Part shown: positions 9,558-39,817 of the stretch, one piece after another
Layout: every line of letters starts with the position of its first letter
Numbering within the stretch: the first letter of the stretch is position 1
IMG/VR virus record: IMGVR_UViG_3300019487_000010
Coordinates: 1 to 44,817 of that record
Reading direction: 5' to 3' (one strand)
DNA length: 44,817 nt
Source of the DNA: a virus
Position numbers and translations under genes: made by a program
Notes under the pieces: generated by a model
The model's input: the letters and a program-made list of their open reading frames with translations, nothing else
Told to the model about the DNA's origin: nothing
Databases searched by the model: none

Positions 9558-10544
9558 CTAGTTGTCGACCTTGACGATGGTACGGGGCTCCCAGATGCCC
9601 CAGCCGGACCGGCTGTCCCAGCCGACCCCGTCCTCCTTCGTGTTCCGCGACACGTCGGAGTTGTCCCGGGTCTGCTCGTCCTGGAGGATGGCCTGCCGGT
9701 TCTGCTGGCAGAACGGCTTCACGTCCAGCCCGATGCAGATCATGTACCAGTCGTCGCCGGTGACGCGCTGGGTCGGGTACAGGGTCGGCATCGGGAACTT
9801 GCCGTTCGCCAGGACGTTCGAGATCGCCGCGGAACCGAGCGGGGTCGCCGGGATCGAGTCCGCCTTGAAGGCGTCGATGAACACCTCGATGTTGTCCGGG
9901 TTGAAGACGAGCATGAACGCGTCGTACTCGAGCTCGCTCGGATCGTAGTAGGGCTCCCCCCCGGTGTCCTGGACCTTGTGGAAGTAGGAGCCGATGGCCC
10001 CCTGGAAGTCCGCCTTGATCGCGGCCGCGGTGGCCACTCCGCTACCGCTGCGGACGTTCCCCGTCGCCACCCCGAAGCGCGACGACCCGCTCAGGAGCGC
10101 TGCCCCGTCGTAGGCGTTCGGGATCGACGGGAGCAGGGACGGGTCGGACGTCGACGTCAGGAGCTGGACCATGATCCGCTCCCGCAGCTGGACGAACCGC
10201 TTCGCCCCGTTGCGGACGCGAGGCATCAGCTGCTTGGTCTGGTCGTCGTCCTTGTCGTTGCGGTTCCACGAGACCCACAGGTTCCAGTCGTGGTTCTCGA
10301 TCTCCACGTAGAACTCGTTGAACGAGTCCTTCTGGCGCGCGGTGAGCCGAGGCCACCGCGAAACCTTGGGCATGGACTCGAAGCCGGCGTGCACCTCGGA
10401 CCGCCGGGTCGAGTCCACCTCCAGGAACGCCTTCTTCACGGCTGCGTTCTCCGCCTTCTGGCGGAGATCGAACGAGCGGTTGAACTCCGCGATGACCGCC
10501 GCGCGGAGGACCCCACTCGTGGTCATGCCTGCGATGCCGGGCAT
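9558..10544 (-). CDS. Major capsid protein, Mu gpT-like (HK97 fold family)
   Basis: The N-terminal pattern EVHAGFESMPKVSRWPRLTARQKDSFNEFYVEIENHDWNLWVSWNRNDKDDD matches the Y.WLG..P.mReW.geR ... y.i.N..fE...v.r..ieDD signature of Mu-like major head subunits. Size (328 aa) and position fit. Confidence 0.75.
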   Translation of the reverse strand: MPGIAGMTTSGVLRAAVIAEFNRSFDLRQKAENAAVKKAFLEVDSTRRSEVHAGFESMPKVSRWPRLTARQKDSFNEFYVEIENHDWNLWVSWNRNDKDDDQTKQLMPRVRNGAKRFVQLRERIMVQLLTSTSDPSLLPSIPNAYDGAALLSGSSRFGVATGNVRSGSGVATAAAIKADFQGAIGSYFHKVQDTGGEPYYDPSELEYDAFMLVFNPDNIEVFIDAFKADSIPATPLGSAAISNVLANGKFPMPTLYPTQRVTGDDWYMICIGLDVKPFCQQNRQAILQDEQTRDNSDVSRNTKEDGVGWDSRSGWGIWEPRTIVKVDN

Positions 10545-10611
10545 GTCACTCTCCTACGTGTTGGCTCCTACCCGCGCGGGGTTGAAGCGGTTTGAGGTTT
10601 CCCTGCTGTAG

Positions 10612-11412
10612 CTACGGGAGCCGCTGAACGACGATGCCGATCTCGAAGACCCCCTCCACGAAGACGGTCGTCGTGCCGAACACCCCCGTGAACACGTCAC
10701 CGTCGCTGAACTCGTTCGCACCGGACGGAGTGACCGACTGCTCCGCCCCGTCCGGGGTCTGCCCCGCCGACGTGACCGTGAGCGCACCGTCGGTGATGGT
10801 AGTGCCGTTGATCCTGCCGGTCATCGTCGTCGCCTTCGCCGCCGTCGTCACCGCGTTCATCGCACGGCAGAAGATCTTCACGATCTTCCCCCGCCCGTAG
10901 AGGGTCTTGGTGACCACGTTGGTGTCGATGATCAGCGCGGCGGTGAGGTATCCGAGGATGATCTCCTCCTTGTCCCCGCCCGAGAGCCGGTGCACCGCCG
11001 AGTGCAACGCGCCGAGCATCAGCACGTCGCCGACTCCGGTCGCGTTGAACCGCGTGGTCACGCCCACGACCTGCGCGTCGTCGGCCGGACGCGTGAGCGT
11101 CAGCGTGTCGTCCGCCGTCGCGTAGACCGGCTTCCAGTTGTCGGTCACCGCCGCGTAGCCGGTCACCGCCGCGTTCTTGAGGATGTACGGGGTGAAGATC
11201 ACCCCGGCCGTCTTCACCCCGTTGCCGACGACGGTGTCGAGCGCCTCGCCGATGAACGAGACCCCCGTCTGGTCGGCCAAGGGGACCGAGTGCCCCGAGG
11301 CCGCCTCCAGGCCCATGAACCCGCCCTTGAACTGGGTCGACCCGTTCTTCACGATCGGGTTGAAGGGCGACGTCTCCAGGTGCGACCGGTTGACCGTGGC
11401 TGCCAGCGCCAT
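10612..11412 (-). CDS. Putative capsid decoration or scaffold-associated protein (266 aa)
   Basis: Beta-rich Thr/Gly/Val-rich ORF between the protease/scaffold gene and the capsid gene. The call is positional. Confidence 0.4.
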   Translation of the reverse strand: MALAATVNRSHLETSPFNPIVKNGSTQFKGGFMGLEAASGHSVPLADQTGVSFIGEALDTVVGNGVKTAGVIFTPYILKNAAVTGYAAVTDNWKPVYATADDTLTLTRPADDAQVVGVTTRFNATGVGDVLMLGALHSAVHRLSGGDKEEIILGYLTAALIIDTNVVTKTLYGRGKIVKIFCRAMNAVTTAAKATTMTGRINGTTITDGALTVTSAGQTPDGAEQSVTPSGANEFSDGDVFTGVFGTTTVFVEGVFEIGIVVQRLP

Positions 11413-11482
11413 GTTTGAGCTACCTCCCCTGTGAACCCCATGAGCCCCGGCACCCGCCGAGACCTCAAAAGCCGAGCGAAGT

Positions 11483-12715
11483 TCAGCCCTTCAGCTGCTT
11501 CGCTCGCCGCACCCCGGAAGCCGCGGCCTCGAGGAACGCCTTCTTCCCGTGCGGGAACACCTGCCGGAACTGCGCCTCGTTCTCCTCCCAGTCCACCGAC
11601 GCCGCCCGCACCGCCTCGCGGACCTCCTCATCCGCGTCCTTGAACGCGATGAGCTCCTCGTCGTGCCCCCGGCTCTTGACCTTGCCGGGCAGCCCCCGTC
11701 CGGTCGAGATGCGGGGGCGCCCCTCCATGTAGGAGACGATGTAGCTTTCGAGGGCCTTCGTGCCCTTGACGCCGAACTCGGTGATCGTCTCCCGGAGCCG
11801 CTTCTCGTCGAAGAAGACCCCCTCCTCCTTGAAGCGCGTGACCAGGCGCCCGAGGGACTCCTCGTCCGCGCTCTGGGCGTGTCGAGCCTCGAGGGAGTCC
11901 ACGCGGGCCACGAGCCGCCCGAGCGCGGCCTCCTTGAACGGGACCCGAGCGGCGACGCTCGGACCGGGCTCACCCGTGGCCGGCGGCCCGCCCTGGCCCC
12001 CGACCGCCGCGAGGAGCTTCATGAGGAGCTCCTTGATCTCCCCCGCCCACGGCGGAACCTCCGCACCCGCCGTGGGCGGAGGCGGCGCTGGCGGCGGCGC
12101 GGCACCCCCGTCGGGCGGCGACCCGTCCGCGTACTCGGTCTTCTGGTCCTGCTCGTCCGGCTCTTCCGTCTCGAAGCCCATGCACACGTCCTCCTTGAAC
12201 TGCACCCGGCCACCCGTGGTGCTCGGCTGCTCCCAGACACAGGTGACCGGGAGCTTGAAGTACGGCGGGAAGGTCTGCATGAGCGCGAGGCTCTTGAGCT
12301 CCTCCTCGCCAGTGGAAGGCACCTCGGCGCTCCGGTACGGGAGTCTGAGGCTCTTGATCTCTTCGAACACGTCCGGCGGCACCTCTACGAGGTCCACGAA
12401 GATCGTGTCCACCAAGCGCCCGTCGAGCATGAGCGGCCGCACCGCGGGGTTGTCCATGAACCCTGCCGCACGATTCACCCCTGCCACGTCCCCGAGGTGC
12501 TCCACGTGCACTCTCGGCAAGTACCCCTGCGAGTACTTGCGGTGCAGGATCCGCGCGGCGGCTCGCTTGAGCCACCCCGAGGTCAGAGCCACACCCTTCG
12601 CCCCGTCCACCGCCGGAAGCACCGGCACCGCCCGGATCGTGTAGTTGCCGTTGCTCTGCCGCTCCGCCTCGTAGGCGTGGGAGAAGGTATTGCGGAAGGC
12701 GACGCTCCAGGTCAT
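11483..12715 (-). CDS. Putative prohead protease/scaffold (Mu gpI-like)
   Basis: Located between the MuF-like and capsid genes. N-terminal PRVHVEHLGDVAGVNRAAGF...LRLPYRSAEV resembles Mu I-type proteins. It has a Pro/Ala linker and a helical C-terminus that could be a nested scaffold. Confidence 0.5.
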   Translation of the reverse strand: MTWSVAFRNTFSHAYEAERQSNGNYTIRAVPVLPAVDGAKGVALTSGWLKRAAARILHRKYSQGYLPRVHVEHLGDVAGVNRAAGFMDNPAVRPLMLDGRLVDTIFVDLVEVPPDVFEEIKSLRLPYRSAEVPSTGEEELKSLALMQTFPPYFKLPVTCVWEQPSTTGGRVQFKEDVCMGFETEEPDEQDQKTEYADGSPPDGGAAPPPAPPPPTAGAEVPPWAGEIKELLMKLLAAVGGQGGPPATGEPGPSVAARVPFKEAALGRLVARVDSLEARHAQSADEESLGRLVTRFKEEGVFFDEKRLRETITEFGVKGTKALESYIVSYMEGRPRISTGRGLPGKVKSRGHDEELIAFKDADEEVREAVRAASVDWEENEAQFRQVFPHGKKAFLEAAASGVRRAKQLKG

Positions 12716-15700
12716 TCTTTCGCCTTTACCTCAAGATAGGTGATTCCCTCGTCCTCGTCCTTGCGAACACCGGTGATCTGCATCAGCGATGAGCGATTGA
12801 TGACCTCAGCTTCGTTCTCCCACCCCACGTTGGGCGCTATGGCGTGATGAGCCAGGATCGAACTCTTGGGCAGGGTCCCGGTCAAGACCACGGGAACCTT
12901 ACCAGCCTGTGGTTGCGCGTAGTTGTCCAGGACCACGTCCAAGTCCTCAGACCAAGAGGACGCCGCTCTCTGCGGAACCACTCCCTGATCCAGCATGGCC
13001 TGCAAGTCCGACTCGGTCAACTGCATGCCCCGATGAGCCTTGAGAGGCTTGTCTGGCAAGAGCCGCTGCGTCGCTTCGTACAAAGCTTTGACCCGAGGCG
13101 AGTTCTCGGCGACCTCCTTCAAGAGACCCTCGGGCTTTTGCCCGGACTCATCCTCTCCGCCCGTCGACCAGATGTCTAGAAACTCCCCAGTCTCAGCGTA
13201 GTCATTTCCGATGACCTCTTCCCAACGAGCAGCGGCCCTGGGATGAAGCCTCTTGATGTGCGGATGGTCACTGAACCCACCTCCCTCTCGTGGTGTGGGT
13301 CTTTCTCGAACGGGCTTGGGCGGCTCCGCTGGCTTGGGCGGCTCCGCTGGCTTGGGCGGCTCCGCGGGCTTGGACAACGACCCCTGCTCCAGAGCCTCCC
13401 GAACGGTCTTACTCCGAATCTCTGCCACCTTCCTCAAGGGATCGCTTCTGGTGCTCGCGTCGTGGAGGTCCGCCAACAACTTCGAGGATGAATAGCTGCC
13501 TGTCTCCAACTGAGCCACGTGAGCCTTCAACGAAGCCTTCAGGTGTTGGTATGACCTCGGATGCTTAGCGTGGAGCTTGTCATGGGCCTCCATCAGAACC
13601 TTGCTCACGTACGCCCGAGCCTCTGGCTGCAGTTTCGGCGGCTCTGCCTTCGGCGGCGCTGCCTTCGGCGGCTCTGCCTTCGGCGGCTCTGCCTTCGGCG
13701 GCTCTACCTTCGGCCCCAGCCCCGCGAGGTGCTTTCCGAGCGCGCCACCGGGCGAGTCCCTGCCCGCTACTCCGTGCTTCGGGGAGTGAGCTTCTCCCAC
13801 GAGGTCTTGCACGGAGAGGTCCACCCTCGCCGGCGACCCGAGGTCCACCCCGAGGTCCTCCGCGTGAGCCTTCAGGGCCTTCTGAAGGCCCTCATGCCCA
13901 AGAGCGTGAGCCGCGTTCCACGCGTGCTTCAAGAAGCTCTTGCCCAACGACCCTACCCCGTCTCCCATCATCTTCTGGGTGGCGAGCCAAGCCTTGTAGG
14001 TCGCTGCCTCGGGCCCGTGCCAGTCCCCGAGAGACTTGTGCGAAGCAGCGACCGCCCCGAGCTGTCGGATCTTCTCCGAGCCCTGCCCCTTCGAGATGAA
14101 ACGGCCGTTGACGTCACGCGGGTGCAGGTCTTCGTGCCAGCTGACAAACCGCACAACGTCACTGTGCTCACGGAGCTGACGCTGGTACTCGTCCAGCTCA
14201 TCCGCGTCCTCGTCCTCGTCCTCCCAGTAGGGTTCCAACGCGGGTGGTAGCGGATAGTAGTCGAGGTCCAGCTCACCGTCATCGTCGTAGTCATCGCTCT
14301 CGAGAGCCTCGGGCGAGACCCCCTCGGCGAAGGTGACCGTGTGCTCGTTCTCCCTGAGCTTGCCGGGATCATAGCCGACTGACCGCGCAAACTGTTCGAA
14401 AACGTTGGGGTGGATGTAGCTTGAGCGAGCCACCGCAGGGGTGTTCTGGATCACGCCAGAGACTTGCTTCGAAGCCTCCTTCAAGACCCGCGCCATCAGC
14501 TGACCCTGGGCCTTGTCTCCAGCGGGCAACGGCGGGGGCGGCGGAGTTAGGCGCTTGATCGCCTCGCGGCCCTCGCGGGTCGCGACGACTGTGCGAAAGT
14601 CCTTGGGACGAAACCCGAGTCCCGCGGTCTTCTCCGCCACCGCCCCGCGAACGCCCTGCGAGAACACCCTCTCATTCTTGCCCTTACGAGCGTAATGGGT
14701 GAGCGCCGCTACGAGCGCGGGCTCATGCACGGTTACGTCGTTCAGCTTCCCGCTCTTGCCCACGAACTGCAGCCGCACCCCGCCCTTCTCGGGCTTCACG
14801 TGCTGACCCAACAGGGTGGTCACCCCGAAGTGCCCGTGCGCAGCGACCGAGCCCTCGCTGCCAGGCCGGAGCCCGGTCACGGCGATGAGTGAAGCAGCGG
14901 TGGCAGCCTCGTGCTCCGGCGACCCGAGCGGAAGGGACCGCACCTGGCTCAAGAGCCCTGCTCGAGCCTTCTCGTACTTGGGCTCCAGCTTTTCGATCTT
15001 CACCCACTTCTTGGCCGCGTTGGCTTTGACGGTGGCGGCCGTATAGCTCTGCTGGAGCTTGCCGCTCTTGTCCCGCCAGGAGAGGATCGCCTTCCCGTGC
15101 GGGTCCGTGAGGGAGCCTACCCGCACGTCAGTGACGTCGGCCGCTGGGAGCTTCTTGACGCCGAGCTCCTTTAGCTTAGCCTGGACCGTTGGGTGTAGCT
15201 GGCTACCCGGAGCCGCCCGCTTGCCTCCGGGAGCGCCCAGGACTGGGGCTGGTCCCGGCGCCGCCGCTGGTTGCCCGCCTTTGGGGGAAAACTCGCCGCT
15301 GGCGCGCCCGTGTCCAGCGCTCACGCGAGCGTGTTGAGCCTCGTTCCACGCAAACGAGACCGTGTAGGGCTCAGCCACGGGCGCTCGCAGGTGCAGAGCG
15401 TTCCCGAAGCCTACGTCATCCGCTTGCCACGCCGTTGGCACCTCAGGATCACTCCGGGTCCACCCCTTGACCTCAGCTTCGGCGAGCGTGACGGTCCGCA
15501 GGGTGCAGCGACAGTTGAACCCGAGCGGGGGCGTGTGCCCGAACCACGCGGGATGACCCTTCGGCAGGGCCACGCGGTGGCCAGCCTGGTGGTTGTGCCG
15601 AACGTTTGGGTCGTTGGCGGTGAGAAACTGAAAGCCCCAGAGCTTTGGGTGACACCGCGCCTCGAGCACCTTGCCTCGATTGAACGCCTTTACGACGTTC

Positions 15701-16185
15701 GTCCGGTATATGGTCGCCGCGTACGCGTCTGAGAACCCGCCGACCTGCTGGATCAGCCGCTGAGGAGCGACATCGCCTTCACCCGAGTCCAAGAAGCCCA
15801 CGAGGAGGCCACGCACCTTGTTCTCGATCGCCTGCGACGCCGCCCGTGTCACGAAGAAAGGCTCTCCGAACGTGTACTCGTCGATCAGCTGAAGCTGTTC
15901 CGCCTCGGTCAGCGGCGCACGCTCCCCAAACACCTCGACCGCCTTGACGAGGGTCCTCGAGAGGGCATCATCGAGACGATACTGCACCGGCGCTCCGCCG
16001 AGCTCCCGCCTCGCGTCCGCGCGTCCCTCCGTGTGCGCGTAGAAGAGCAGCCGGCGGAGCCCCTCCTCCACCTCCGCGTGCTCAACCTCGACCTCGCTCT
16101 TTCCCCGGGTGAGCCGGTAGACGATGGCGCGAGTGAGCCCTCGAAGGAGGGTACGGGCTCTCTCCTGGGCGGTCGCGAGGCTCAT
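12712..16185 (-). CDS. Polyvalent virion protein: MuF/SPP1 gp7-like head morphogenesis domain + type IB topoisomerase-like domain + repeat linkers + C-terminal ADP-ribosyltransferase-like domain
   Basis: MuF: HPAWFGHTPPLGFNCRCTL (aa ~210-230). TopIB: GLRPGSE, FGVTTLLGQHV, LQFVGKSGK, RPKDFRTVVAT, IQNTPAVARSSYIHP (aa ~335-605). HPRDVNGRF motif at aa 688-696. ART-like R-S-E triad: KAHRG, AASSWSED, WENEAEVI (aa ~1050-1128). Confidence 0.85.
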   Translation of the reverse strand: MSLATAQERARTLLRGLTRAIVYRLTRGKSEVEVEHAEVEEGLRRLLFYAHTEGRADARRELGGAPVQYRLDDALSRTLVKAVEVFGERAPLTEAEQLQLIDEYTFGEPFFVTRAASQAIENKVRGLLVGFLDSGEGDVAPQRLIQQVGGFSDAYAATIYRTNVVKAFNRGKVLEARCHPKLWGFQFLTANDPNVRHNHQAGHRVALPKGHPAWFGHTPPLGFNCRCTLRTVTLAEAEVKGWTRSDPEVPTAWQADDVGFGNALHLRAPVAEPYTVSFAWNEAQHARVSAGHGRASGEFSPKGGQPAAAPGPAPVLGAPGGKRAAPGSQLHPTVQAKLKELGVKKLPAADVTDVRVGSLTDPHGKAILSWRDKSGKLQQSYTAATVKANAAKKWVKIEKLEPKYEKARAGLLSQVRSLPLGSPEHEAATAASLIAVTGLRPGSEGSVAAHGHFGVTTLLGQHVKPEKGGVRLQFVGKSGKLNDVTVHEPALVAALTHYARKGKNERVFSQGVRGAVAEKTAGLGFRPKDFRTVVATREGREAIKRLTPPPPPLPAGDKAQGQLMARVLKEASKQVSGVIQNTPAVARSSYIHPNVFEQFARSVGYDPGKLRENEHTVTFAEGVSPEALESDDYDDDGELDLDYYPLPPALEPYWEDEDEDADELDEYQRQLREHSDVVRFVSWHEDLHPRDVNGRFISKGQGSEKIRQLGAVAASHKSLGDWHGPEAATYKAWLATQKMMGDGVGSLGKSFLKHAWNAAHALGHEGLQKALKAHAEDLGVDLGSPARVDLSVQDLVGEAHSPKHGVAGRDSPGGALGKHLAGLGPKVEPPKAEPPKAEPPKAAPPKAEPPKLQPEARAYVSKVLMEAHDKLHAKHPRSYQHLKASLKAHVAQLETGSYSSSKLLADLHDASTRSDPLRKVAEIRSKTVREALEQGSLSKPAEPPKPAEPPKPAEPPKPVRERPTPREGGGFSDHPHIKRLHPRAAARWEEVIGNDYAETGEFLDIWSTGGEDESGQKPEGLLKEVAENSPRVKALYEATQRLLPDKPLKAHRGMQLTESDLQAMLDQGVVPQRAASSWSEDLDVVLDNYAQPQAGKVPVVLTGTLPKSSILAHHAIAPNVGWENEAEVINRSSLMQITGVRKDEDEGITYLEVKAKE
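13313..13373. repeat. 18-bp tandem repeat x3.4 encoding (PAEPPK)n linker
   Basis: ggcttgggcggctccgct repeated head to tail inside 12712..16185. Confidence 0.9.
13636..13710. repeat. 15-bp tandem repeat x5 encoding (PKAEP)n linker
   Basis: cggcggctctgcctt repeated 5 times with 2 point variants inside 12712..16185. Confidence 0.9.
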
Positions 16186-16376
16186 GCGTCCAACGCCGCC
16201 CTCACCGCGCAGTCCTTGGCCTCGAGGAGCTTCCGCAGAGCCATCTCCCGCTCACTCCCGCTCGGCAGCGTCTCGCAGAGCTCGCGTGCCAAGTCGCCGA
16301 AGAGCCGGCTCACCTTCTGGAGCTTGCCCGGGAGATGGGCGTACGTGAAGTACCTGAGCAACGAGTCCTCATCCAT
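16182..16376 (-). CDS. Hypothetical small protein (64 aa)
   Basis: Coupled ORF between the portal and MuF-like genes. Confidence 0.45.
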   Translation of the reverse strand: MDEDSLLRYFTYAHLPGKLQKVSRLFGDLARELCETLPSGSEREMALRKLLEAKDCAVRAALDA

Positions 16377-20540: not shown

Positions 20541-20662
20541 GGCTCCCCTGTATTCAAACTGCACTTTTGTTCCCCAGCCCCTCCCCGCACCGGCGGGCAC
20601 GCGCCCGCGCCCGCGCAGGAAGCCCCTTTTGCACAAAAGTGCAGTTTGAATACAGGGGAGCC
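20541..20662. repeat. Palindromic element copy 1: 30-bp perfect terminal inverted repeats around a 62-nt GC-rich spacer
   Basis: 20541-20570 GGCTCCCCTGTATTCAAACTGCACTTTTGT is the exact reverse complement of 20633-20662. A second copy lies at 39696-39817. Confidence 0.9.
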
Positions 20663-21923: not shown

Positions 21924-22034
21924 TCACCCGTCGTTGAGGGTCGCGTCGTACCACGCGGCCCAGATCCGCCGCTCCGCCATGTTCGCTTCCTGCTCCGCTC
22001 GCTCCGCCTCGCACAGCAGCCAGCCCGTCCGCAC
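21924..22034 (-). CDS. Possible 36-aa ORF filling the gap before the nuclease gene
   Basis: GTG at 22034 preceded by ACAGGGGC. The peptide is VRTGWLLCEAERAEQEANMAERRIWAAWYDATLNDG, and its stop lies 5 nt before the next ATG. Confidence 0.25.
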   Translation of the reverse strand: MRTGWLLCEAERAEQEANMAERRIWAAWYDATLNDG

Positions 22035-22050
22035 GAGCCCCTGTCGCTGC

Positions 22051-22452
22051 TTAGTCGTGGTGACGACGGGGGCGACGACGGGGCTGGCCAGGCACGGAGC
22101 CGTTCGGCGGCGGCGCGACCTCGGGCCGCTTTTCCGCGAGAAACGCACGCCGGAGCGCTTCGGGCAAGAGCTCAAGCCGATCCTCCTTCTTCGCCGCTGC
22201 GACTCGCTCCGCGCACGCGTGGCAGAGCCGCACGCTCAACATGCACAGGTCCCCGATGACCACGTGGGTGATCACGTAGTGCTGGGTGTGGACCCAGCAC
22301 CCGTGGCAGGCTCCCTCGGGGAGCTTCTCGGGCTGAACCCTCGTGGGCACCGTGTTCGTCATGAGCTCCCGCACAAACCGCTTGTGGTCCTCGGTCACCT
22401 CCTCGTGTTTGAGCCCCAGGATCTTGATCGCAGCTTCAGTCCACCTGCTCAT
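22051..22452 (-). CDS. Hypothetical Cys/His-rich protein (133 aa)
   Basis: ORF with CHGCW...CHAC motifs, coupled to the ligase gene. Confidence 0.5.
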   Translation of the reverse strand: MSRWTEAAIKILGLKHEEVTEDHKRFVRELMTNTVPTRVQPEKLPEGACHGCWVHTQHYVITHVVIGDLCMLSVRLCHACAERVAAAKKEDRLELLPEALRRAFLAEKRPEVAPPPNGSVPGQPRRRPRRHHD

Positions 22453-23203
22453 CGGCGAGCTCCTTGTCCTCGCGCACCCGTACGAGGCGGGGGAACCGGA
22501 GCCGCCCGCCCGCCGCGACGCTGTCGTAGGCTACCTCGACCACCATGCCCGCGCGCCAGCTCGTGAAGAGCTGAGCTCGCACCTCGTCGGTCATCCCGCT
22601 CACGTTCGCGACCACCGTGCCGTCTCGGCGAGCGCACACCAGCGAGCCGAGGGTCCCTGCGAACTTCCCCGCTGAGCCCTCCTTGACGTCCACGACCTGG
22701 AGGTCGCAGGTCCGCACGGGCTTGAGCTTGTACGTGTCGTACACGCACCGCTTGTGACGGTAGACCAGCCCCTCCCAGGCTGCGGCCTGGAGGAAGCGAA
22801 GCGCGTCTACCTCGTCGAGAGCCTTGTACGAGACCACGTGTGGAGTCTCGAGCCCGAGCCGCTTGAGCAGGAGCACGTGCTTTCTCGTGGAGAGCTCCTC
22901 CCACGGACCCTCCGGGGTCTCGAGCACCTGCCACGCGGTGAACCGCACCCGCCTCACTCCCGCCTTCAAGGCGGTCAACACCGCGGTCGCGGGCTCAGCC
23001 TCGAGCCACGCCTCGCCTAGAACGACGAACCCGGGTGGGACCCCGGGTAGGGGTCGCCTCGGGTAGCGGGTACGTTCGCCCGTGAACGAGTTCCTCCCTC
23101 GTCCCAGGGCGTCTTCCCGAGAGAGGGTCACCTGGAGCCCGTCGTACTTCCGTTCGACGAGCGTGAGCCCCGGCGGGATCAGCCCCGCCCTCCATGGCTT
23201 CAT
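22436..23203 (-). CDS. lig: ATP-dependent DNA ligase (small, T7-like)
   Basis: Motif I ERKYDGLQV (KxDG), motif IV EGLVYRHK, motif V YKLKPV. I chose the ATG at 23203, which shares its A with the upstream TGA. Confidence 0.8.
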   Translation of the reverse strand: MKPWRAGLIPPGLTLVERKYDGLQVTLSREDALGRGRNSFTGERTRYPRRPLPGVPPGFVVLGEAWLEAEPATAVLTALKAGVRRVRFTAWQVLETPEGPWEELSTRKHVLLLKRLGLETPHVVSYKALDEVDALRFLQAAAWEGLVYRHKRCVYDTYKLKPVRTCDLQVVDVKEGSAGKFAGTLGSLVCARRDGTVVANVSGMTDEVRAQLFTSWRAGMVVEVAYDSVAAGGRLRFPRLVRVREDKELADEQVD

Positions 23204-23430
23204 CAGCACCTCCAGTAGAGGGCGTCTCGCCCGCACCGCGGGCACGTTTGAGCAATGCCGCTCCCCACTCGGAGGTGAAGCCAGCCGCTGACGAGGTGAC
23301 TTACCACCTCGTCAGCGCGCATGACCCCCGGCTCGTCGGAGGGAAGCGGCACCACGATCCCGCCGCACTGGCAGGCGATCATCTCTCCAGGCGGGTAGGC
23401 GAAGGTGCGGCGAGTGAGCGGGCTCACCAC
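23203..23430 (-). CDS. Small zinc-ribbon protein (75 aa)
   Basis: CQC ... CPRC cysteine pairs; GTG start. Confidence 0.45.
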   Translation of the reverse strand: MVSPLTRRTFAYPPGEMIACQCGGIVVPLPSDEPGVMRADEVVSHLVSGWLHLRVGSGIAQTCPRCGRDALYWRC

Positions 23431-23684
23431 CCCGTCTCGGTCTCGGTCTCGAGCCAGGTGGGAACGAGGCAGGTGAGCGCCGGCCGCGGGTCCTCGCTGA
23501 ACACGTAGAAGCGGTGCTGCGAGTCGTCCTCGAGGTAAAGGCCACAGCCTCGCGAGTACTCGTCCCCGAGCTTCGGGTAGAGCGGGTAGAACCCCGGACC
23601 ACGGTCCAGCTTGAGCGTGAGCTCCGCCTCGAGTAGCTCACGCGTGGCTCGTACGAGCGACCAGTCTGGGATCGGGTACTGCAT
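23424..23684 (-). CDS. Hypothetical protein (86 aa)
   Basis: ATG at 23684 preceded by GAGGAGGAAGG, 1 nt after the upstream stop. Confidence 0.45.
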   Translation of the reverse strand: MQYPIPDWSLVRATRELLEAELTLKLDRGPGFYPLYPKLGDEYSRGCGLYLEDDSQHRFYVFSEDPRPALTCLVPTWLETETETGW

Positions 23685-23685
23685 G

Positions 23686-23988
23686 TCACCTTCCTCCTCT
23701 TTGCTTTCCGAGCGCCCGTTCGAGCTTTTTGATCTCACGGGCCATGTCCGCGAGCTTGTCCGCTAACTTAGCGGGCTTGGCTCGTTTGAGAAGCTCCCCG
23801 TACTCTCGCTCGAGCGCGTGTATCGTTCCGACGTCGCGCTCGATCTGCTGATCCAACTGCGGGATCGCCTTCTCGATAAAGGCGAGTCGACCCTTGAGGA
23901 CCTCGCGCTCGTGCACCCGCGTGAGCATGGCGCACCGTGCGGTTTGAAGGCGCTTGTAGAGCGCCTTCTTGTCGCCCTCGTAGGTCAC
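23686..23988 (-). CDS. Hypothetical coiled-coil protein (100 aa)
   Basis: GTG start 6 nt after GGAGA in the conserved leader GGAGACAGCAG. Confidence 0.5.
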   Translation of the reverse strand: MTYEGDKKALYKRLQTARCAMLTRVHEREVLKGRLAFIEKAIPQLDQQIERDVGTIHALEREYGELLKRAKPAKLADKLADMAREIKKLERALGKQRGGR

Positions 23989-24003
23989 CTGCTGTCTCCT
24001 GTC

Positions 24004-24066
24004 CGCCTACCTCGTCAGCGCGCGGAGGCGACCCGCGCGGACCCCGCCCGTAGGCGGGGTTTCGGC
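24004..24066 (-). ncRNA. Type II hammerhead ribozyme motif HH-A
   Basis: Minus strand: GCC-GAAA-CCCCGCC-UACG-GGCGGGG-U-C/CGCGCGG-GUCGCCU-CCGCGCG-CUGACGA-GGU-AGGCG. All core nucleotides are present, with a GUC cleavage triplet and a loop I / 3' tail pseudoknot. Confidence 0.8.
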
Positions 24067-24067
24067 T

Positions 24068-24511
<444 letters not shown>

Positions 24512-24534
24512 CTTTCTCGCTCCTGTCTCCGAGG

Positions 24535-24597
24535 AACCTGCCTCGTCAGCGCGCGGAGGTCACCCGCGCGGACCCCACCTGCGGGCGGGGTTTCGGC
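24535..24597 (-). ncRNA. Type II hammerhead ribozyme motif HH-B
   Basis: Minus strand: GCC-GAAA-CCCCGCC-CGCA-GGUGGGG-U-C/CGCGCGG-GUGACCU-CCGCGCG-CUGACGA-GGC-AGGUU. The core is intact, and the differences from HH-A preserve pairing. Confidence 0.8.
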
Positions 24598-24885
24598 TCA
24601 GAAGTTCAGGCAGCCCGACTTGCCGCTGCCGTACCGAACCCGGATCTGCGTGAGCCTGAACCTGAGGAGCTCCCGCTTGGAGGTGTACTGGCCGTTCACA
24701 GCCTGGAAGTCCTTGTTTTCGTCGAAGTCCCTCTGCGCAGCCTCGAGGGAAGGGTACTTTCGGCCGTACGCGGCGCGGAGCGGCTCCAGCCCGAAGAGGC
24801 TGAAGGGGAACCCCGCTAGGCGGCCCTCGTTCGCGCCCTTCGCCTGGTCATCGAAGCTCTCCTGAAACCGCTCGAGGTTGCTCAT
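24598..24885 (-). CDS. Hypothetical protein (95 aa; possibly N-terminally longer, up to 24987)
   Basis: ATG at 24885 preceded by AGGAGAACC. The track ORF extends through a Pro/Ala-rich stretch from a GTG at 24987. Confidence 0.5.
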   Translation of the reverse strand: MSNLERFQESFDDQAKGANEGRLAGFPFSLFGLEPLRAAYGRKYPSLEAAQRDFDENKDFQAVNGQYTSKRELLRFRLTQIRVRYGSGKSGCLNF

Positions 24886-24904
24886 CTGGAGGTTCTCCTG
24901 TGCT

Positions 24905-25012
24905 TTAGACCCGGAGGGCGGCGCGAGCGAGGCGGCGGGCGCGGCGACGGTCGCCGCGGCGGGTGGCGGGGTCGTGGGTGTGACCACGGGGGTCGTGGCC
25001 GTAGAAGCGCAT
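24905..25012 (-). CDS. Possible 35-aa Arg-rich leader ORF directly after HH-C
   Basis: ATG at 25012 preceded by the conserved AAGGAGACAGCAG leader. The peptide is MRFYGHDPRGHTHDPATRRGDRRRARRLARAALRV, ending at TAA 24907-24905. It could equally be an off-frame artefact. Confidence 0.2.
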   Translation of the reverse strand: MRFYGHDPRGHTHDPATRRGDRRRARRLARAALRV

Positions 25013-25033
25013 TTTCTGCTGTCTCCTTCTGTC

Positions 25034-25096
25034 CGCCTGCCTCGTCAGCGCGCGGAGGCGACCCGCGCGGACCCCGCCCGTAGGCGGGGTTTCGGC
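25034..25096 (-). ncRNA. Type II hammerhead ribozyme motif HH-C
   Basis: Identical to HH-A except that stem II position 10.3 is C instead of U, so G:C replaces G:U. Confidence 0.8.
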
Positions 25097-25105
25097 TCTA
25101 CGGCT

Positions 25106-25489
25106 CTACTCCTGGGCGGTCGGAGCAGGACCCTCGTCCAGGTGCTCAACGGTCGGAGCGGGCGCGATCTCCTGGAGCCTCGCCTGGAGGCGAGCGATCT
25201 TGCGAGCGATCTTCTCCGCCGGCGAGAGCGGCGTCCGCGGAGCGGGCTCGAAACGATCGCGGTCCGCGCGCACCTGGCGGAAGGCGGTGCGGGCCGCGGT
25301 GAAGGCGTCGCGCCAGAGCGCGAGGTTCTCACGCGCGCTCTTGACCTCCGCGCGAGCGGAGCGGAGGTCGTTGCGCGTGAGCTGGAACTGCTCGTCCAAC
25401 GTGCGCCGCGCCTCGTCGTGGCGAATCCGCGGCTGAACGGCGGGGGCGCTCTTCTTCGTGCTCTTCGTGCTCTTGCTCTTCTTGGCCAT
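25106..25489 (-). CDS. Hypothetical protein with a Lys/Ser/Thr-rich N-terminus and coiled coil (127 aa)
   Basis: ATG at 25489 preceded by AGGAGACAGCAG. The longer track ORF would start inside the promoter. Confidence 0.55.
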   Translation of the reverse strand: MAKKSKSTKSTKKSAPAVQPRIRHDEARRTLDEQFQLTRNDLRSARAEVKSARENLALWRDAFTAARTAFRQVRADRDRFEPAPRTPLSPAEKIARKIARLQARLQEIAPAPTVEHLDEGPAPTAQE

Positions 25490-25552
25490 CTGCTGTCTCC
25501 TGCGCCCGCGGTGCGGGGGGTTTGAGGCTGCGGGCTCCCTGCTCACGCTCAT

Positions 25553-25561
25553 ATTGTACCA
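25553..25561 (-). promoter_or_regulatory. Extended -10 promoter element TGGTACAAT
   Basis: Minus strand reads TGG TACAAT. It sits about 60 nt upstream of the first small gene, and a 7-bp hairpin (25561-25578) overlaps the -35 region. Confidence 0.45.
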
Positions 25562-25567
25562 AAGCAC

Positions 25568-26014
25568 GGCTGTGCTTTTTCGAAGAAAGTTCTAAGAGCA
25601 ATCCTGCCACCACTTGTGTCGAGAACTATTTTCTCGGCATGAGCTTTGCCGCACTTTGCCTTTTGAGCCCTCGATGCAAGTGCTTTCCCTCCCCTAACTT
25701 GTGGCCCGGAGCTTATTTGATTTCCCTGGCTTTTCCGCAAGTGCTTACCCCGTAAGCCCTTGCAACAGGGGTCCTAAGTGCTTATAGCATAAGCAGTTAG
25801 GAAGCGCAATAGGAGCGCTCTGGGCCGCACGGTTTGCCCGGTAAGGGTTGCCCACTGCTTGCCACCAGCATGCGGCCCAGAGCGCTCCTGGCTATGCCAG
25901 CGAGCAGCCCAGCTTGCCACCAGCCCCGCGCTTGCTGCGCGGGCTTGCCCGGCAAGTGGCCCACCGTTTGCAGATCCCGAGCTGGCCTGGATTTTGCTTC
26001 CCTGGACGAATCGC
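25568..26014. promoter_or_regulatory. ~450-bp non-coding hub with reduced GC, GCAAGTGC-type repeats, TTGCC repeats and two large palindromes (candidate origin / regulatory region)
   Basis: No ORF here has phage-like GC3. My hand count over 25561-25800 gives about 50% GC. Repeats are listed in the findings. Confidence 0.5.
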
Positions 26015-28015
26015 TCACGAGGCACCCCACCCACGAAGCTCAAGGGCGCGCGACGCCGCGAGCGCGGAGGCGAGCTCCGTTGCGAGCGCGACCGGGTCAT
26101 GCGTGAGCGGATGAGCCTTCACCTTGCGAGCGTGACCCCACGACCGTCCGCTCACCTTCATGTCAACGATGAGCGGGAGCCGCAGGCCCCAGTCCTCCGG
26201 GTCCTCGAGGAGTCGCCAGAGCTCAAGCATGAAGGGCAGGAGCTCGCTCTCCTTCACGGAGAAGAGGAGCGAGTCATGCACCATGATGAGGAGTTTCGCT
26301 CCCCACCGCGGCTCGAGCTCACGGAGCACCCGCAGAACCTTCACCTTGAAGATGTCCGCGGCTCCGCCTTGGATCACGTAGTTCAGCGCCTTGTGGGAGC
26401 CCTGCTCGGGGTTGAACCGGTACACCCGCCCAAGGACGTTACGAACCCACCCGCGTCGCTTGACCAGCCGCTTGACCTTCGTTTGCAGGGCTCGGATCGA
26501 AGGGAACTCCCGGTGGTAGCTGTCGTAGATCTGCTGAGCCAACAGGTCCGTGGTCCGAGTGTCCAGCTTCTCAGCGCGCTTCGCGGTCTGAGTGCCCGCG
26601 CCCATCAGGAGCGTACGCATGGCGGCCTTCATCTCACCGGCTCCGCCCTGAGCCTCCTTCAGCTTCAGGGTCGCCGCGAGGTTCTTGAGGAGCTTGGCGC
26701 GACCCATCCCGTAGACGAACGAGAAGTTCAGCTGCTTCGCGAACTGGCGATCCACCCCGAGCCGGGTAGCCAAGGACTGGTGGAAGTCCGTGAACGGGTT
26801 CTCGAGGAACGCGGCCAACACGCGGGCGTCGTTCGCGTAGTGCCCGAACAGCCGGTACTCGATCTGGCTGTAGTCCACGGACAGGAGCACCTCGTCCGCC
26901 TCATGAGGCTCTACGAACGCCTCCGCCTCCACGGGTACGTTAAACAGTGAGGGATTCCGGCAGGACATGCGTCCGGTCGCGGCTCCCGCTTGAGCGATCC
27001 CCGGGTGCAGAAGCTCCTGCTCATCCACCCGTTTGAGCCAGCCCTCCACGTAGGTGGCGAGGAAGTGTTGGTTCTTGCTGTACTCCGAGAGGAGCTTTCC
27101 CACGGGATGGTTGAGCGTCTCGAGCGCCATCGAGTCCCACTGAGGCTTCCCGCTCTTCGTGAAGGCGAGGGGATGGAAGCCCAGCTGACCCATCAACAGC
27201 TGACTCACGTCCTCGTCAGCCCCAGGGTCACACATGAAGTCAGCGACCTGGTTGACCTCCTCCCAGAGCTGGACCTGCCGCGCCAACAGCCCGTGCTGAG
27301 CGCGCTTGATCGCCTCCACCTTGACCGGAAAGCCCCGCCGCTCCACCCGCAAAAGCTCCCGGGTAAGCGGCACCTCCACCTCGGACCAGAGGCGGCGACT
27401 CAGGTCCGGAAGCCTCTCCTCAGCGGCGCGGAAACAGTCCGCCGTGACTAGAGCGTCGCTCTCCGCGTACTCACCGAGGAGCTCTACGGGGGCCTTCGCG
27501 TAGTCCTTGGTCTTCGCACGGCGGCGCCACGGGGTGAGCAGGTCCTTCCCCCGCTTTCGGTGCTCCGCGTTGAAGACCGCTGCGAGGTAGTGCAGCTGAT
27601 ACGAGGGCAGATCGTTGTGGGTCAGTCGCGAGATCACCCAGAGGTCCTCGATGGAGGCTGCGCTCAGCCAGTCAACCCCGTCTACGTACGCGAAGTGGGC
27701 GTCAAACTTCACGTTATGGTTGATCACCCGTCGGTTCCGCACTAGGTCGCTCAGCCAGCGGGTGGCGCCCTCAAGCTCCACGTTGTCACCATCGTAGTGC
27801 CGCAGGGGCACATAGGTCGACCATGCCCCGTCGAGGGTAGCCACGCCCCAACTCACCGCTCGATCCCCACAGAAGGGCTGGTCCCCGTAGCGATCATCGA
27901 CAAACCCCGTGGTCTCCACGTCGAGCACCACGGGCACGCCGGGAGGAGGAAGCTCCTTCAACTCGCCCACCAGAGCCTCCCCTCCTCCACAGCCTCGTTG
28001 AGGCGAGCCACCCAC
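26015..28015 (-). CDS. polA: Family A DNA polymerase with 3'-5' exonuclease domain
   Basis: Exo I VLDVETTG, Exo II NHNVKFDAHF, Exo III YAESDALV; Pol motif A LLSVDYSQIEYRL, motif B RQFAKQLNFSFVYGMG, motif C IMVHDSLLF. The true start may be GTG 27970 or TTG 27961 (TTGA overlap). Confidence 0.9.
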   Translation of the reverse strand: MGGSPQRGCGGGEALVGELKELPPPGVPVVLDVETTGFVDDRYGDQPFCGDRAVSWGVATLDGAWSTYVPLRHYDGDNVELEGATRWLSDLVRNRRVINHNVKFDAHFAYVDGVDWLSAASIEDLWVISRLTHNDLPSYQLHYLAAVFNAEHRKRGKDLLTPWRRRAKTKDYAKAPVELLGEYAESDALVTADCFRAAEERLPDLSRRLWSEVEVPLTRELLRVERRGFPVKVEAIKRAQHGLLARQVQLWEEVNQVADFMCDPGADEDVSQLLMGQLGFHPLAFTKSGKPQWDSMALETLNHPVGKLLSEYSKNQHFLATYVEGWLKRVDEQELLHPGIAQAGAATGRMSCRNPSLFNVPVEAEAFVEPHEADEVLLSVDYSQIEYRLFGHYANDARVLAAFLENPFTDFHQSLATRLGVDRQFAKQLNFSFVYGMGRAKLLKNLAATLKLKEAQGGAGEMKAAMRTLLMGAGTQTAKRAEKLDTRTTDLLAQQIYDSYHREFPSIRALQTKVKRLVKRRGWVRNVLGRVYRFNPEQGSHKALNYVIQGGAADIFKVKVLRVLRELEPRWGAKLLIMVHDSLLFSVKESELLPFMLELWRLLEDPEDWGLRLPLIVDMKVSGRSWGHARKVKAHPLTHDPVALATELASALAASRALELRGWGAS

Positions 28016-39695: not shown

Positions 39696-39817
39696 GGCTC
39701 CCCTGTATTCAAACTGCACAATTTGAAAAGTGGCTATGCCTGCGCGGGCGCGGGCGCGTGCCCGCCGGTGCGGGGCTCCCCTTTTGCACAAAAGTGCAGT
39801 TTGAATACAGGGGAGCC
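39696..39817. repeat. Palindromic element copy 2: 24-bp perfect terminal inverted repeats around a 74-nt spacer
   Basis: 39696-39719 is the exact reverse complement of 39794-39817. The arms are identical to copy 1, and the 37-nt core is inverted relative to copy 1. Confidence 0.9.

Follow-up and report, generated by a model that had tools for sequence, protein, structure and literature searches.

What does a self-cleaving RNA do when it recurs three times within a single viral operon? The question is raised by a 44,817-nucleotide (nt) stretch of viral DNA (IMG/VR virus record IMGVR_UViG_3300019487_000010, positions 1 to 44,817; hereafter the window), in which an earlier reading of the letters alone, the original prediction, had proposed a hammerhead ribozyme, HH-C, at 25034-25096 as the near-identical twin of a second copy, HH-A, and as one of three copies in all, the third being HH-B. 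The window is the genome of an uncultured phage from a metagenome, and this genome is probably complete. Following up the prediction computationally, we consider it likely, at a probability of about 0.8, that HH-C, HH-B and HH-A would act as self-cleaving mRNA-processing ribozymes that punctuate an operon of small genes between the genes for DNA polymerase A and DNA ligase.

Three type II hammerheads in one operon

Using a covariance-model search (cmscan) of the whole window, we found HH-C (25031-25097, minus strand) to match the Rfam family RF02276, Hammerhead_II, over its full length (1-66/66) at 49.2 bits and E=3e-7, where the gathering score of the family is 37 bits. HH-A (24001-24067) and HH-B (24532-24598), also full-length and on the minus strand, scored 47.8 and 45.1 bits, respectively; the three E-values span 3e-7 to 4e-6, and the scores lie 8-12 bits over the gathering score. 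No other Rfam family rose above its gathering score in the window, and a permissive search at E<=1 yielded only two sub-threshold matches to unrelated families.

In RNA order, HH-C runs from the 3' strand of stem II through GAAA, the stem III hairpin, C17, the stem I hairpin and CUGACGA to the 5' strand of stem II (Table 1), which is the type II permutation: loops close stems I and III, whereas both ends of the RNA lie in stem II. Stems I, II and III comprise 8, 3 and 8 bp, standard pairing holds for the full 19 bp in each of the three copies, and the pairs adjoining the core (G10.1:C11.1, C1.1:G2.1 and A15.1:U16.1) are all present. The catalytic core is identical throughout: its 11 unpaired nucleotides (CUGACGA, G12-A14 and C17) are intact, and position 17 is C rather than G. 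The predicted cuts fall between 25070 and 25069 in HH-C, between 24571 and 24570 in HH-B, and between 24040 and 24039 in HH-A. By every defining feature that can be tested in a sequence, the element is a type II hammerhead ribozyme and a member of RF02276. The hammerhead assignment and helix numbering of the original prediction are thus borne out by the RF02276 scores and the layout of core and stems, and its scission site coincides with ours (C17 is 25070 and N1.1 is 25069); it had named scores under the gathering threshold in all three copies as one result that would speak against it, and all three lie above.

The three copies share not only a fold but also a genomic setting. On the minus strand, the order is polA (ending at 26015), a 525-nt gap, an open reading frame (ORF) of 127 amino acids (aa), HH-C, ORFs of 35 and 95 aa, HH-B, a 147-aa ORF, HH-A, a 100-aa ORF, an 86-aa ORF and the ligase gene. 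All three ribozymes lie inside 1.1 kb on the gene strand. Each is placed between a stop codon and the ribosome-binding site (RBS) that follows, beginning 0-8 nt past the stop codon and ending 20-28 nt before the following start codon.

Upon comparing the copies position by position, we obtained a pattern that points to constraint on the fold. A MAFFT alignment of 11 hammerheads from three phages came out of structural register and was replaced by a descriptor-based parse and a gap-free alignment of the three window sequences, in which standard pairs made up 98.6% of pair cells, as compared to 39-51% with the partners slid by 1-3 columns. HH-B and HH-C differ at 11 of 67 positions (84% identical), with three differences in loop III, one in stem III (G:C to G:U), two in loop I and five in the tail; none falls in the core and no pair is broken, which under random placement has a probability of ~1.7e-6. 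Loop I and the 3' tail are complementary, forming a potential pseudoknot of UCGCC:GGCGG (5 bp) in HH-A and HH-C and of GACC:GGUU (4 bp) in HH-B that begins 1 nt past stem II in each case. Two of its pairs are changed on both sides in HH-B with the register kept (C:G to G:U and G:C to A:U). Hence, the loop I changes of HH-B are matched by changes in its tail, a sign of selection on the ribozyme fold, with shuffle statistics that are weak (52 of 500) for three related sequences only.

A near-identical pair and an 8-nt duplication

Direct comparison of 24001-24071 with 25031-25101 returned 70 identical positions out of 71, and the sole difference (plus-strand A at 24009, G at 25039) sits at stem II position 10.3, which reads U in the RNA of HH-A and C in that of HH-C. 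Opposite G11.3 (24066 and 25096), this yields a G:U pair in HH-A and a G:C pair in HH-C, so that both the degree of identity and the nature of the single substitution are as originally described. The G:C pair at 10.3-11.3 gives HH-C a hammerhead secondary structure that is computed to be more stable by 1.9 kcal/mol than that of HH-A. The two copies form direct repeats 1,030 nt apart, and with one 3-nt indel their identity extends from CGUAG across the ribozyme to the RBS AGGAGACAGCAG, over ~85 nt, where it ends.

Immediately 5' of HH-C, the minus strand reads ...CAG GAG UAG AGCCG UAGAGCC GAAA, and the UAGAGCC duplication reported here by the original prediction proved to be an exact tandem 8-mer, TAGAGCCG. 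The UAG of the distal TAGAGCCG copy (25108-25106) is the stop codon in use for the 127-aa ORF; the proximal copy provides positions 11.4-11.1 and G12 of HH-C, and its UAG is out of frame and not used. HH-A starts with UAG AGCC, its UAG being a true stop, and HH-C starts with the same heptamer, in agreement with the proposal that the stop-codon context moved with the unit. Solely thanks to the duplication, the AUG at 25012 shares its frame with the 127-aa ORF, with no stop over the 96 nt that traverse all of HH-C.

The question of whether the upstream GCC could form an alternative stem II can be answered in the negative: no active stem II is possible with it, as it would leave 8 nt between 11.1 and G12. 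What the distal CCGU does pair with in the nearest-neighbour model is GCGG of the tail (probability ~0.7); this helix extends stem II across an internal loop, and the correct register of stem II thereby rises in probability from 0.04 to 0.69. In hammerheads that were studied biochemically, the pseudoknot, which in type II begins just after stem II, is required for fast cleavage at physiological Mg2+; truncating it cut the observed rate constant (k_obs) by ~20-fold to >100-fold, and extending stem II by one pair also lowered it substantially (Perreault et al. 2011, PMC3088659). As the distal helix would occupy pseudoknot nucleotides, the model together with these rate losses suggests that the duplication could slow HH-C cleavage.

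Two independent Logan contigs from run SRR7811987, L053 and L060, reproduce the ribozyme locus, and an assembly artefact as the cause of the twin was rejected on these grounds. L053 covers the 127-aa ORF and the 8-nt duplication and reaches into HH-C as far as ...CUGACGAGG, and it ends ...CTGACGAGG just before the base that distinguishes HH-A from HH-C, which is where a short-k-mer assembler is expected to halt because of the repeat branch. L060 is 100% identical to window 25069-24083 and carries the C variant of HH-C, the ORFs, the whole of HH-B and most of the 147-aa ORF.

How did the pair arise? The ORFs that flank the ribozymes have no detectable mutual homology, with only weak similarities of a coiled-coil type (E of at least 0.004), and a segmental duplication of gene plus ribozyme, which would have left paralogous flanking proteins, was rejected accordingly. 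As the identity ends after the RBS and the flanking ORFs are unrelated, it appears to be the intergenic unit itself that was recently copied or homogenised. Judged from the sequence, the near-identity of HH-A and HH-C reflects recent copying or gene conversion of a stop-ribozyme-RBS unit of ~85 nt, with HH-B having diverged earlier. The originally proposed spread of ribozyme and leader by local duplication therefore fits the ~85-nt identity through the RBS and the unrelated flanking ORFs, but in a single genome duplication and gene conversion between older copies are inseparable; moreover, the leader GGAGACAGCAG also precedes the first gene, where there is no ribozyme, so that part of the leader may be generic to the operon. 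The TAGAGCCG duplication marks the 5' junction of the copied unit or a later replication slip, a slip in place giving the same result. The related contig L056 has a probable, truncated hammerhead start after its orthologue of the 147-aa ORF, so the HH-A position is probably old, making HH-A the likelier donor.

Hammerhead arrays in related phages

Searches of IMG/VR, JGI metagenomes, GTDB genomes and a 5.8-billion-protein collection revealed no close relative of the phage, the closest polymerase relatives being 36-42% identical, and exact and IUPAC searches for the hammerhead subtype gave no match in IMG/VR or in 185,579 GTDB genomes. At this distance, type II hammerheads recur at stop/RBS junctions downstream of polA, as in the window (loci are given by our L handles). 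In ~575 kb of loci (L001-L051), descriptor hits occur on the polymerase strand only and downstream of the polymerase only. The low-GC locus L006 (= L003, L028; ~40% GC by eye) carries three hammerheads of 53-61 bits in the span from polymerase to ligase, each after a stop codon and before an RBS, with compensatory changes in stem I across the array; its third copy (13620-13685) has the core CCGAUGA (U4 to C) and still scores 53 bits.

Other loci depart further from the family model. In L008, five candidates lie evenly spaced between small genes (12332-14047) and are without the usual pseudoknot; three reach 22-30 bits, short of the gathering score, and the other two, identified by the descriptor only, are not reported by cmscan at E<=1. 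In L057 (polymerase 39% identical), two copies were found by descriptor, each followed by an RBS and AUG; their descriptor fit is good, and neither is reported by cmscan at E<=1. L058 (polymerase 39%) has one hammerhead of 37.3 bits (10547-10619) with the core UUGACGA (C3 to U). In L056 (DRR463593; polymerase 37%), the contig end (11483-11509) falls inside a probable hammerhead start, UAA GGCC GAAAC CCCGGGG..., right after the orthologue of the 147-aa ORF (11136-11483; 47% identity, E=8e-18); a second orthologue lies in L061 at 553-867, the 147-aa ORF showing 50% identity to P0056. Copies within an array are more alike than copies from different phages, and they range from near-identical in the window phage to very divergent in L057. 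The Logan contigs L056 and L053 both end inside hammerhead repeats, and as near-identical ribozymes break assemblies, such arrays may be under-counted in metagenome surveys.

Self-cleavage as a proposed form of mRNA processing

We propose that each ribozyme would fold as the polycistronic RNA is made, with stems III and I forming as closed hairpins, the 3-bp stem II joining the sequence after the stop codon to that after CUGACGA, and loop I engaging the 3' tail in the pseudoknot. Cutting after C17 at 25070/25069, 24571/24570 and 24040/24039 would release a 5' piece with the 127-aa ORF, a 499-nt segment with the 35-aa and 95-aa ORFs, a 531-nt segment with the 147-aa ORF, and a 3' piece that opens with the 100-aa ORF. 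Given the type II topology, every upstream product would end in the 8-bp, GC-rich, UACG-capped stem III hairpin with a 2',3'-cyclic phosphate, and each downstream product would start with a 5'-hydroxyl (5'-OH) on the 8-bp stem I hairpin, ~30 nt before its own RBS. These ends would be expected to protect the products from 3' exonucleases and from 5'-monophosphate-dependent decay. Apart from any tertiary contacts, the 3-bp stem II would be the sole link between the products, so that they should separate quickly. The outcome would be a host-independent split of one transcript into separately stable and separately translated mRNAs.

Several observations weigh against this proposal. Each pseudoknot by itself is not significant against shuffled tails. 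In the nearest-neighbour model, which omits the pseudoknot and tertiary contacts, the minimum-free-energy structures of the isolated 67-70-nt RNAs place stem II outside the hammerhead register, with a stem II probability of 0.002-0.04, and the folding z-scores of these RNAs are just -1.3 to -1.9. Among the closest polymerase relatives, L054 and L055 have no array. In L061, the orthologue of the 147-aa ORF is followed (864-965) by a long imperfect hairpin (~25 bp, -47.6 kcal/mol over 101 nt) and then an RBS and AUG, with no hammerhead, indicating that the ribozyme is dispensable or replaceable; this hairpin may be a site of processing by a protein nuclease of the RNase III type, or a stabiliser. 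Finally, the effects of cutting on mRNA stability and translation are those that we infer purely by reasoning, and they are less certain than the processing itself.

Among other explanations, the one that fares best, though we regard it as unlikely, is that the elements serve as conditional switches, in which a ribosome terminating at the stop codon unwinds stem II, G12-A14 and part of stem III, such that cleavage becomes a race between folding and translation. In HH-C, the duplication would then add a competitor helix for the pseudoknot tail and tune the rate at the first junction. The stop codons do lie close to position 11.x (0-8 nt in the window, mostly <=10 nt in L006, L008 and L057), although such tight spacing is ordinary in compact phage genomes, and hammerheads of this type usually cut co-transcriptionally within seconds to minutes. 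The helix between the distal CCGU and the tail, predicted at ~0.7 by the nearest-neighbour model, would provide a competitor, and k_obs is known to fall substantially with a weaker pseudoknot or one more pair in stem II (Perreault et al. 2011, PMC3088659); yet the duplication is a single event in one genome, and no ligand- or protein-binding element is visible.

It is very unlikely that the copies are merely intergenic repeats of a hairpin module, having lost their hammerhead activity or having no use for it, and that they act as 3' stabilisers, protein-binding sites or recombination hotspots for the shuffling of gene cassettes. HH-A and HH-C, as direct repeats 1,030 nt apart, would be suitable substrates for recombination, the gene content between polymerase and ligase varies among relatives as the ribozymes persist, and the junction of L061 that corresponds to HH-A holds a plain long hairpin. 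Against this, the 11 unpaired core nucleotides are intact in all three copies and avoided by substitutions, the pseudoknot covaries, and simple hairpin functions would give no reason for CUGANGA, GAAA and an H17 to be kept in exact register across phages of ~40% to 65% GC.

The ends left by hammerheads, a 5'-OH and a 2',3'-cyclic phosphate, are those that RtcB ligases use. Least probable of all is that the 499- and 531-nt segments are circularised by such a host ligase, or by the reverse reaction of the ribozyme, into circles that would each carry a chimeric hammerhead reconstituted from neighbouring halves and a complete RBS-ORF-stop unit and thus be phage-encoded, possibly translatable circular mRNAs: the halves are interchangeable (stem II is GCC/GG(C/U) in all three copies) and the possibility was raised for such arrays by Perreault et al. 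2011 (PMC3088659), but when the same authors examined comparable arrays for splicing or circularisation, no such product was detected (PMC3088659), nothing in the sequence specifically favours ligation, and the stem II that would hold the ends has just 3 bp.

Genes, leaders and the upstream gap

The features of the locus are collected in Table 1.

Table 1. Coordinates of the HH-C ribozyme, its sister copies and the surrounding operon (window numbering; minus-strand features are read from high to low positions)
Feature	Position	Strand	Remarks
Putative regulatory/promoter region	25501-26014	minus	gap motifs
RBS/leader GGAGACAGCAG before first gene	25490-25500	minus	no ribozyme; then AUG 25489
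127-aa ORF, probably first operon gene	25106-25489	minus	upstream of HH-C; gene call on source contig; AUG 25489, stop UAG 25108-25106
8-nt tandem duplication, TAGAGCCG x2	25108-25101 and 25100-25093	minus	read from sequence
HH-C stem II 3' strand	25096-25094	minus	GCC
HH-C G12 A13 A14	25093-25091	minus
HH-C stem III hairpin	25090-25071	minus	8 bp including A15.1:U16.1 (A15.1 = 25090, U16.1 = 25071); UACG tetraloop
HH-C C17	25070	minus	predicted cleavage after C17; N1.1 = 25069
HH-C stem I hairpin	25069-25049	minus	8 bp; loop UCGCC 25061-25057
HH-C core C3 U4 G5 A6 C7 G8 A9	25048-25042	minus	CUGACGA
HH-C stem II 5' strand	25041-25039	minus	GGC
HH-C spacer	25038	minus	A
HH-C pseudoknot tail	25037-25033	minus	GGCGG, complementary to loop I (5 bp)
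RBS/leader GGAGACAGCAG after HH-C	25016-25026	minus	then AUG 25012
35-aa ORF, Arg-rich	24905-25012	minus	coding status uncertain; gene call and frame from sequence; opened by RBS/AUG after HH-C
95-aa ORF, ORFan	24598-24885	minus	between HH-C and HH-B; stop UGA 24600-24598
HH-B	24532-24598	minus	type II hammerhead; first nt = A of UGA stop 24600-24598 of 95-aa ORF
RBS/leader as GGAGACAGGAG after HH-B	24520-24530	minus	then AUG 24511
147-aa ORF	24068-24511	minus	between HH-B and HH-A; Lys-rich N-terminus, Asp/Glu-rich tail; AUG 24511, stop UAG 24070-24068
HH-A	24001-24067	minus	type II hammerhead; U at 10.3 (24009); directly after UAG stop 24070-24068 of 147-aa ORF
RBS/leader GGAGACAGCAG after HH-A	23989-23999	minus	then GUG 23988
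100-aa ORF, coiled-coil-like	23686-23988	minus	downstream of HH-A; GUG 23988
86-aa ORF	23424-23684	minus	after 100-aa ORF without intervening ribozyme
ATP-dependent DNA ligase	22436-23245	minus

The non-coding gap of 525 nt (25490-26014) between the polymerase gene and the 127-aa ORF contains three AAGCACTT motifs (25678-25783), where 0.48 are expected, a palindrome, AAAGCACagccGUGCUUU (25577-25560), built from a half-site of the AAGCACTT type, and a possible extended -10 element, TGGTACAAT, at 25561-25553. In L056, the equivalent gap (10095-10302) carries long inverted repeats of the same motif, AAGTGCTTA...TAAGCACTT. The motif is probably a conserved operator or regulatory site, and a promoter role is suggested by the sequence. 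The region thus looks regulatory, and the placement of HH-C "after the first gene of the operon", as originally stated, is plausible from the gap and its motifs; a scan of 22000-26500 for sigma-70 consensus promoters reported none, however, and the start of the operon is to that extent a presumed one.

The leader motif GGAGACAG[C/G]AG has four exact occurrences in the window, all of them in the operon, and with one mismatch allowed there are six, as compared to 3.9 expected by chance. Stem III was considered as an intrinsic terminator and rejected, as what comes after the hairpin is CCGCGCG and not a U tract; on the gene strand, no terminator-like site was reported in 22000-26500, and the three that were reported there are all on the plus strand, about the number expected by chance.

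The small ORFs of the operon gave no significant Pfam or PHROG match, and the 95-aa ORF matched only itself among 5.8 billion proteins. A spacer of 19 nt separates the end of the 35-aa ORF from the RBS and AUG that belong to the 95-aa ORF, and a rival reading of 129 aa from a GTG start has no RBS. In the 147-aa ORF, the tail (24068-24230, minus strand) encodes ~40 Asp/Glu-rich residues from imperfect repeats of the GACGAG type, and the two orthologues are without it; for a small Lys-rich protein of the replication module, an acidic tail might point to a DNA mimic or to an SSB-like partner. Many of the proteins that precede hammerheads (those of the 127-, 147- and 100-aa ORFs, and in L006 and L008) end in an amphipathic helix rich in Lys, Ala and Leu, for example AEKIARKIARLQARLQE, AKKLKKLERLKKQFAKL, AAKVARMREQLAVLEQQL and AKRLIKLTEKMAELKKQL. 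This may be an effect of coiled-coil composition, given that profile comparison gives no support for homology beyond the helix. Deep homology of the 147-aa family with the pre-hammerhead proteins of L006 and L008 was likewise rejected, BLASTP and hhalign being negative except for the short C-terminal helix (probability 2-5%).

The phage genome

The ends of the window are identical over 123 nt (1-123 and 44695-44817), and hence the genome unit is ~44.7 kb (44,694 bp), either circular or terminally redundant. The source contig in ENA, k141_1478206 (ERZ27251177, 44,820 bp), breaks inside polA, and the window is a rotated version of it. GC content is 62-69%, ~65% overall, and nearly all ORFs with coding-like GC at third codon positions lie on the minus strand. 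The genome encodes a terminase large subunit, a major head protein, DNA polymerase A, a primase, an SNF2-type helicase, an ATP-dependent DNA ligase and ThyX, and no tRNAs were found in the window. Its replication module combines polA, ThyX and Pam3_gp32/gp34. Among 50,697 phage records, none matched 23000-27000 at the nucleotide level; the best protein identities to cultured phages are <30%, and the best record, MW202657, has a different gene set after the polymerase.

Two further kinds of repeat were seen elsewhere in the window. In a pair of 122-nt intergenic elements (20541-20662 and 39696-39817, minus strand), a 74-nt centre is bounded by perfect terminal inverted repeats of 24 nt, GGCTCCCCTGTATTCAAACTGCAC. 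A GC-rich core of 38 nt within the centre is exactly inverted between the copies, and the adjoining TTTTGTGCAAAAGGGG keeps its orientation; the element could be a loop-flipped hairpin, a small mobile element, or an element resembling a terminator or an origin. In-frame tandem repeats at 13313-13373 (18 nt, three copies) and 13619-13714 (15 nt, five copies) lie inside a 1,179-aa ORF (12712-16251), which may encode a tape-measure or other structural protein.

Comparison with known systems

Nothing in the three copies differs in kind from RF02276 Hammerhead_II, with which they share the conserved core, the three-way junction and the loop I/tail pseudoknot that begins 1 nt past stem II. The differences are of degree: the stems, as a reflection of the 65% GC genome, are unusually rich in GC and long (8 bp), the pseudoknot reads UCGCC/GGCGG where the family consensus is UGG(C)/GCCA, and HH-C has the extra 8-nt duplicated segment 5' of stem II.

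Read as mRNA-processing ribozymes, the elements have a functional analogue in phage T7, where, as Dunn and Studier reportedly established, RNase III cleaves the early polycistronic mRNA at intergenic sites, giving monocistronic mRNAs with terminal hairpins retained. In T7, a host protein enzyme acts on double-stranded sites and leaves 5'-phosphate and 3'-hydroxyl ends, whereas the window RNA would cut itself and leave a 5'-OH and a 2',3'-cyclic phosphate; the ~25-bp imperfect hairpin at the junction of L061 past the 147-aa orthologue would fit this analogy. A second parallel is with synthetic ribozyme insulators such as RiboJ, which Lou et al. in 2012 are said to have described as a self-cleaving ribozyme upstream of an RBS that strips the upstream RNA context and leaves a 5' hairpin, such that downstream expression becomes independent of context. 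RiboJ was engineered from the ribozyme of a plant satellite RNA, whereas the elements of the window are natural phage sequences.

The closest parallels are the clustered hammerheads that flank single genes in prophages, which cleave in vitro and, for the Agrobacterium tumefaciens array, also in E. coli (PMC3088659), and which Perreault et al. 2011 proposed to process such transcripts into single-gene mRNAs (PMC3088659). In the triple arrays of A. tumefaciens, Azorhizobium caulinodans and Clostridium scindens, as in the window, hammerheads on the same strand within ~2 kb split small, mostly hypothetical phage genes. By contrast, the window array resides in a free, probably complete uncultured phage with a polymerase at most 42% identical to any match, it lies in the replication module between polA and ligase, where similar arrays recur in distant relatives, and two of its copies are near-identical. 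We did not find a link between type II arrays and the polA-ligase position stated in the hammerhead literature cited here. Type II hammerheads near phage-like genes also cleave in vivo in Desulfovibrio vulgaris, as found by cyPhyRNA-seq, which captured products with 2',3'-cyclic-phosphate and 5'-OH ends (PMC8782182); the phage-derived context is shared, but the three hammerheads of D. vulgaris lie at separate genome sites and not in one operon. For most bacterial and phage hammerheads, the biological role is formally open (PMC6765202).

The arrangement therefore belongs to a known class, that of the clustered prophage hammerheads described in 2011, including the experimentally tested triple arrays. 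What is new is the very divergent phage host, the near-identical pair with its natural variants, the recurrent association of type II arrays with a small-gene cassette downstream of polA in distantly related phages, and a relative with a plain hairpin at the equivalent junction. The locus provides a clean natural test case for hammerheads as host-independent mRNA processing signals, with variants suited to a comparison of rates (G:U versus G:C in stem II, and an 8-nt duplication able to compete with the pseudoknot). Overall, it leaves the knowledge of hammerheads as it was, and its value is that of an additional well-defined example and of a pointer to the association with the cassette downstream of polA.

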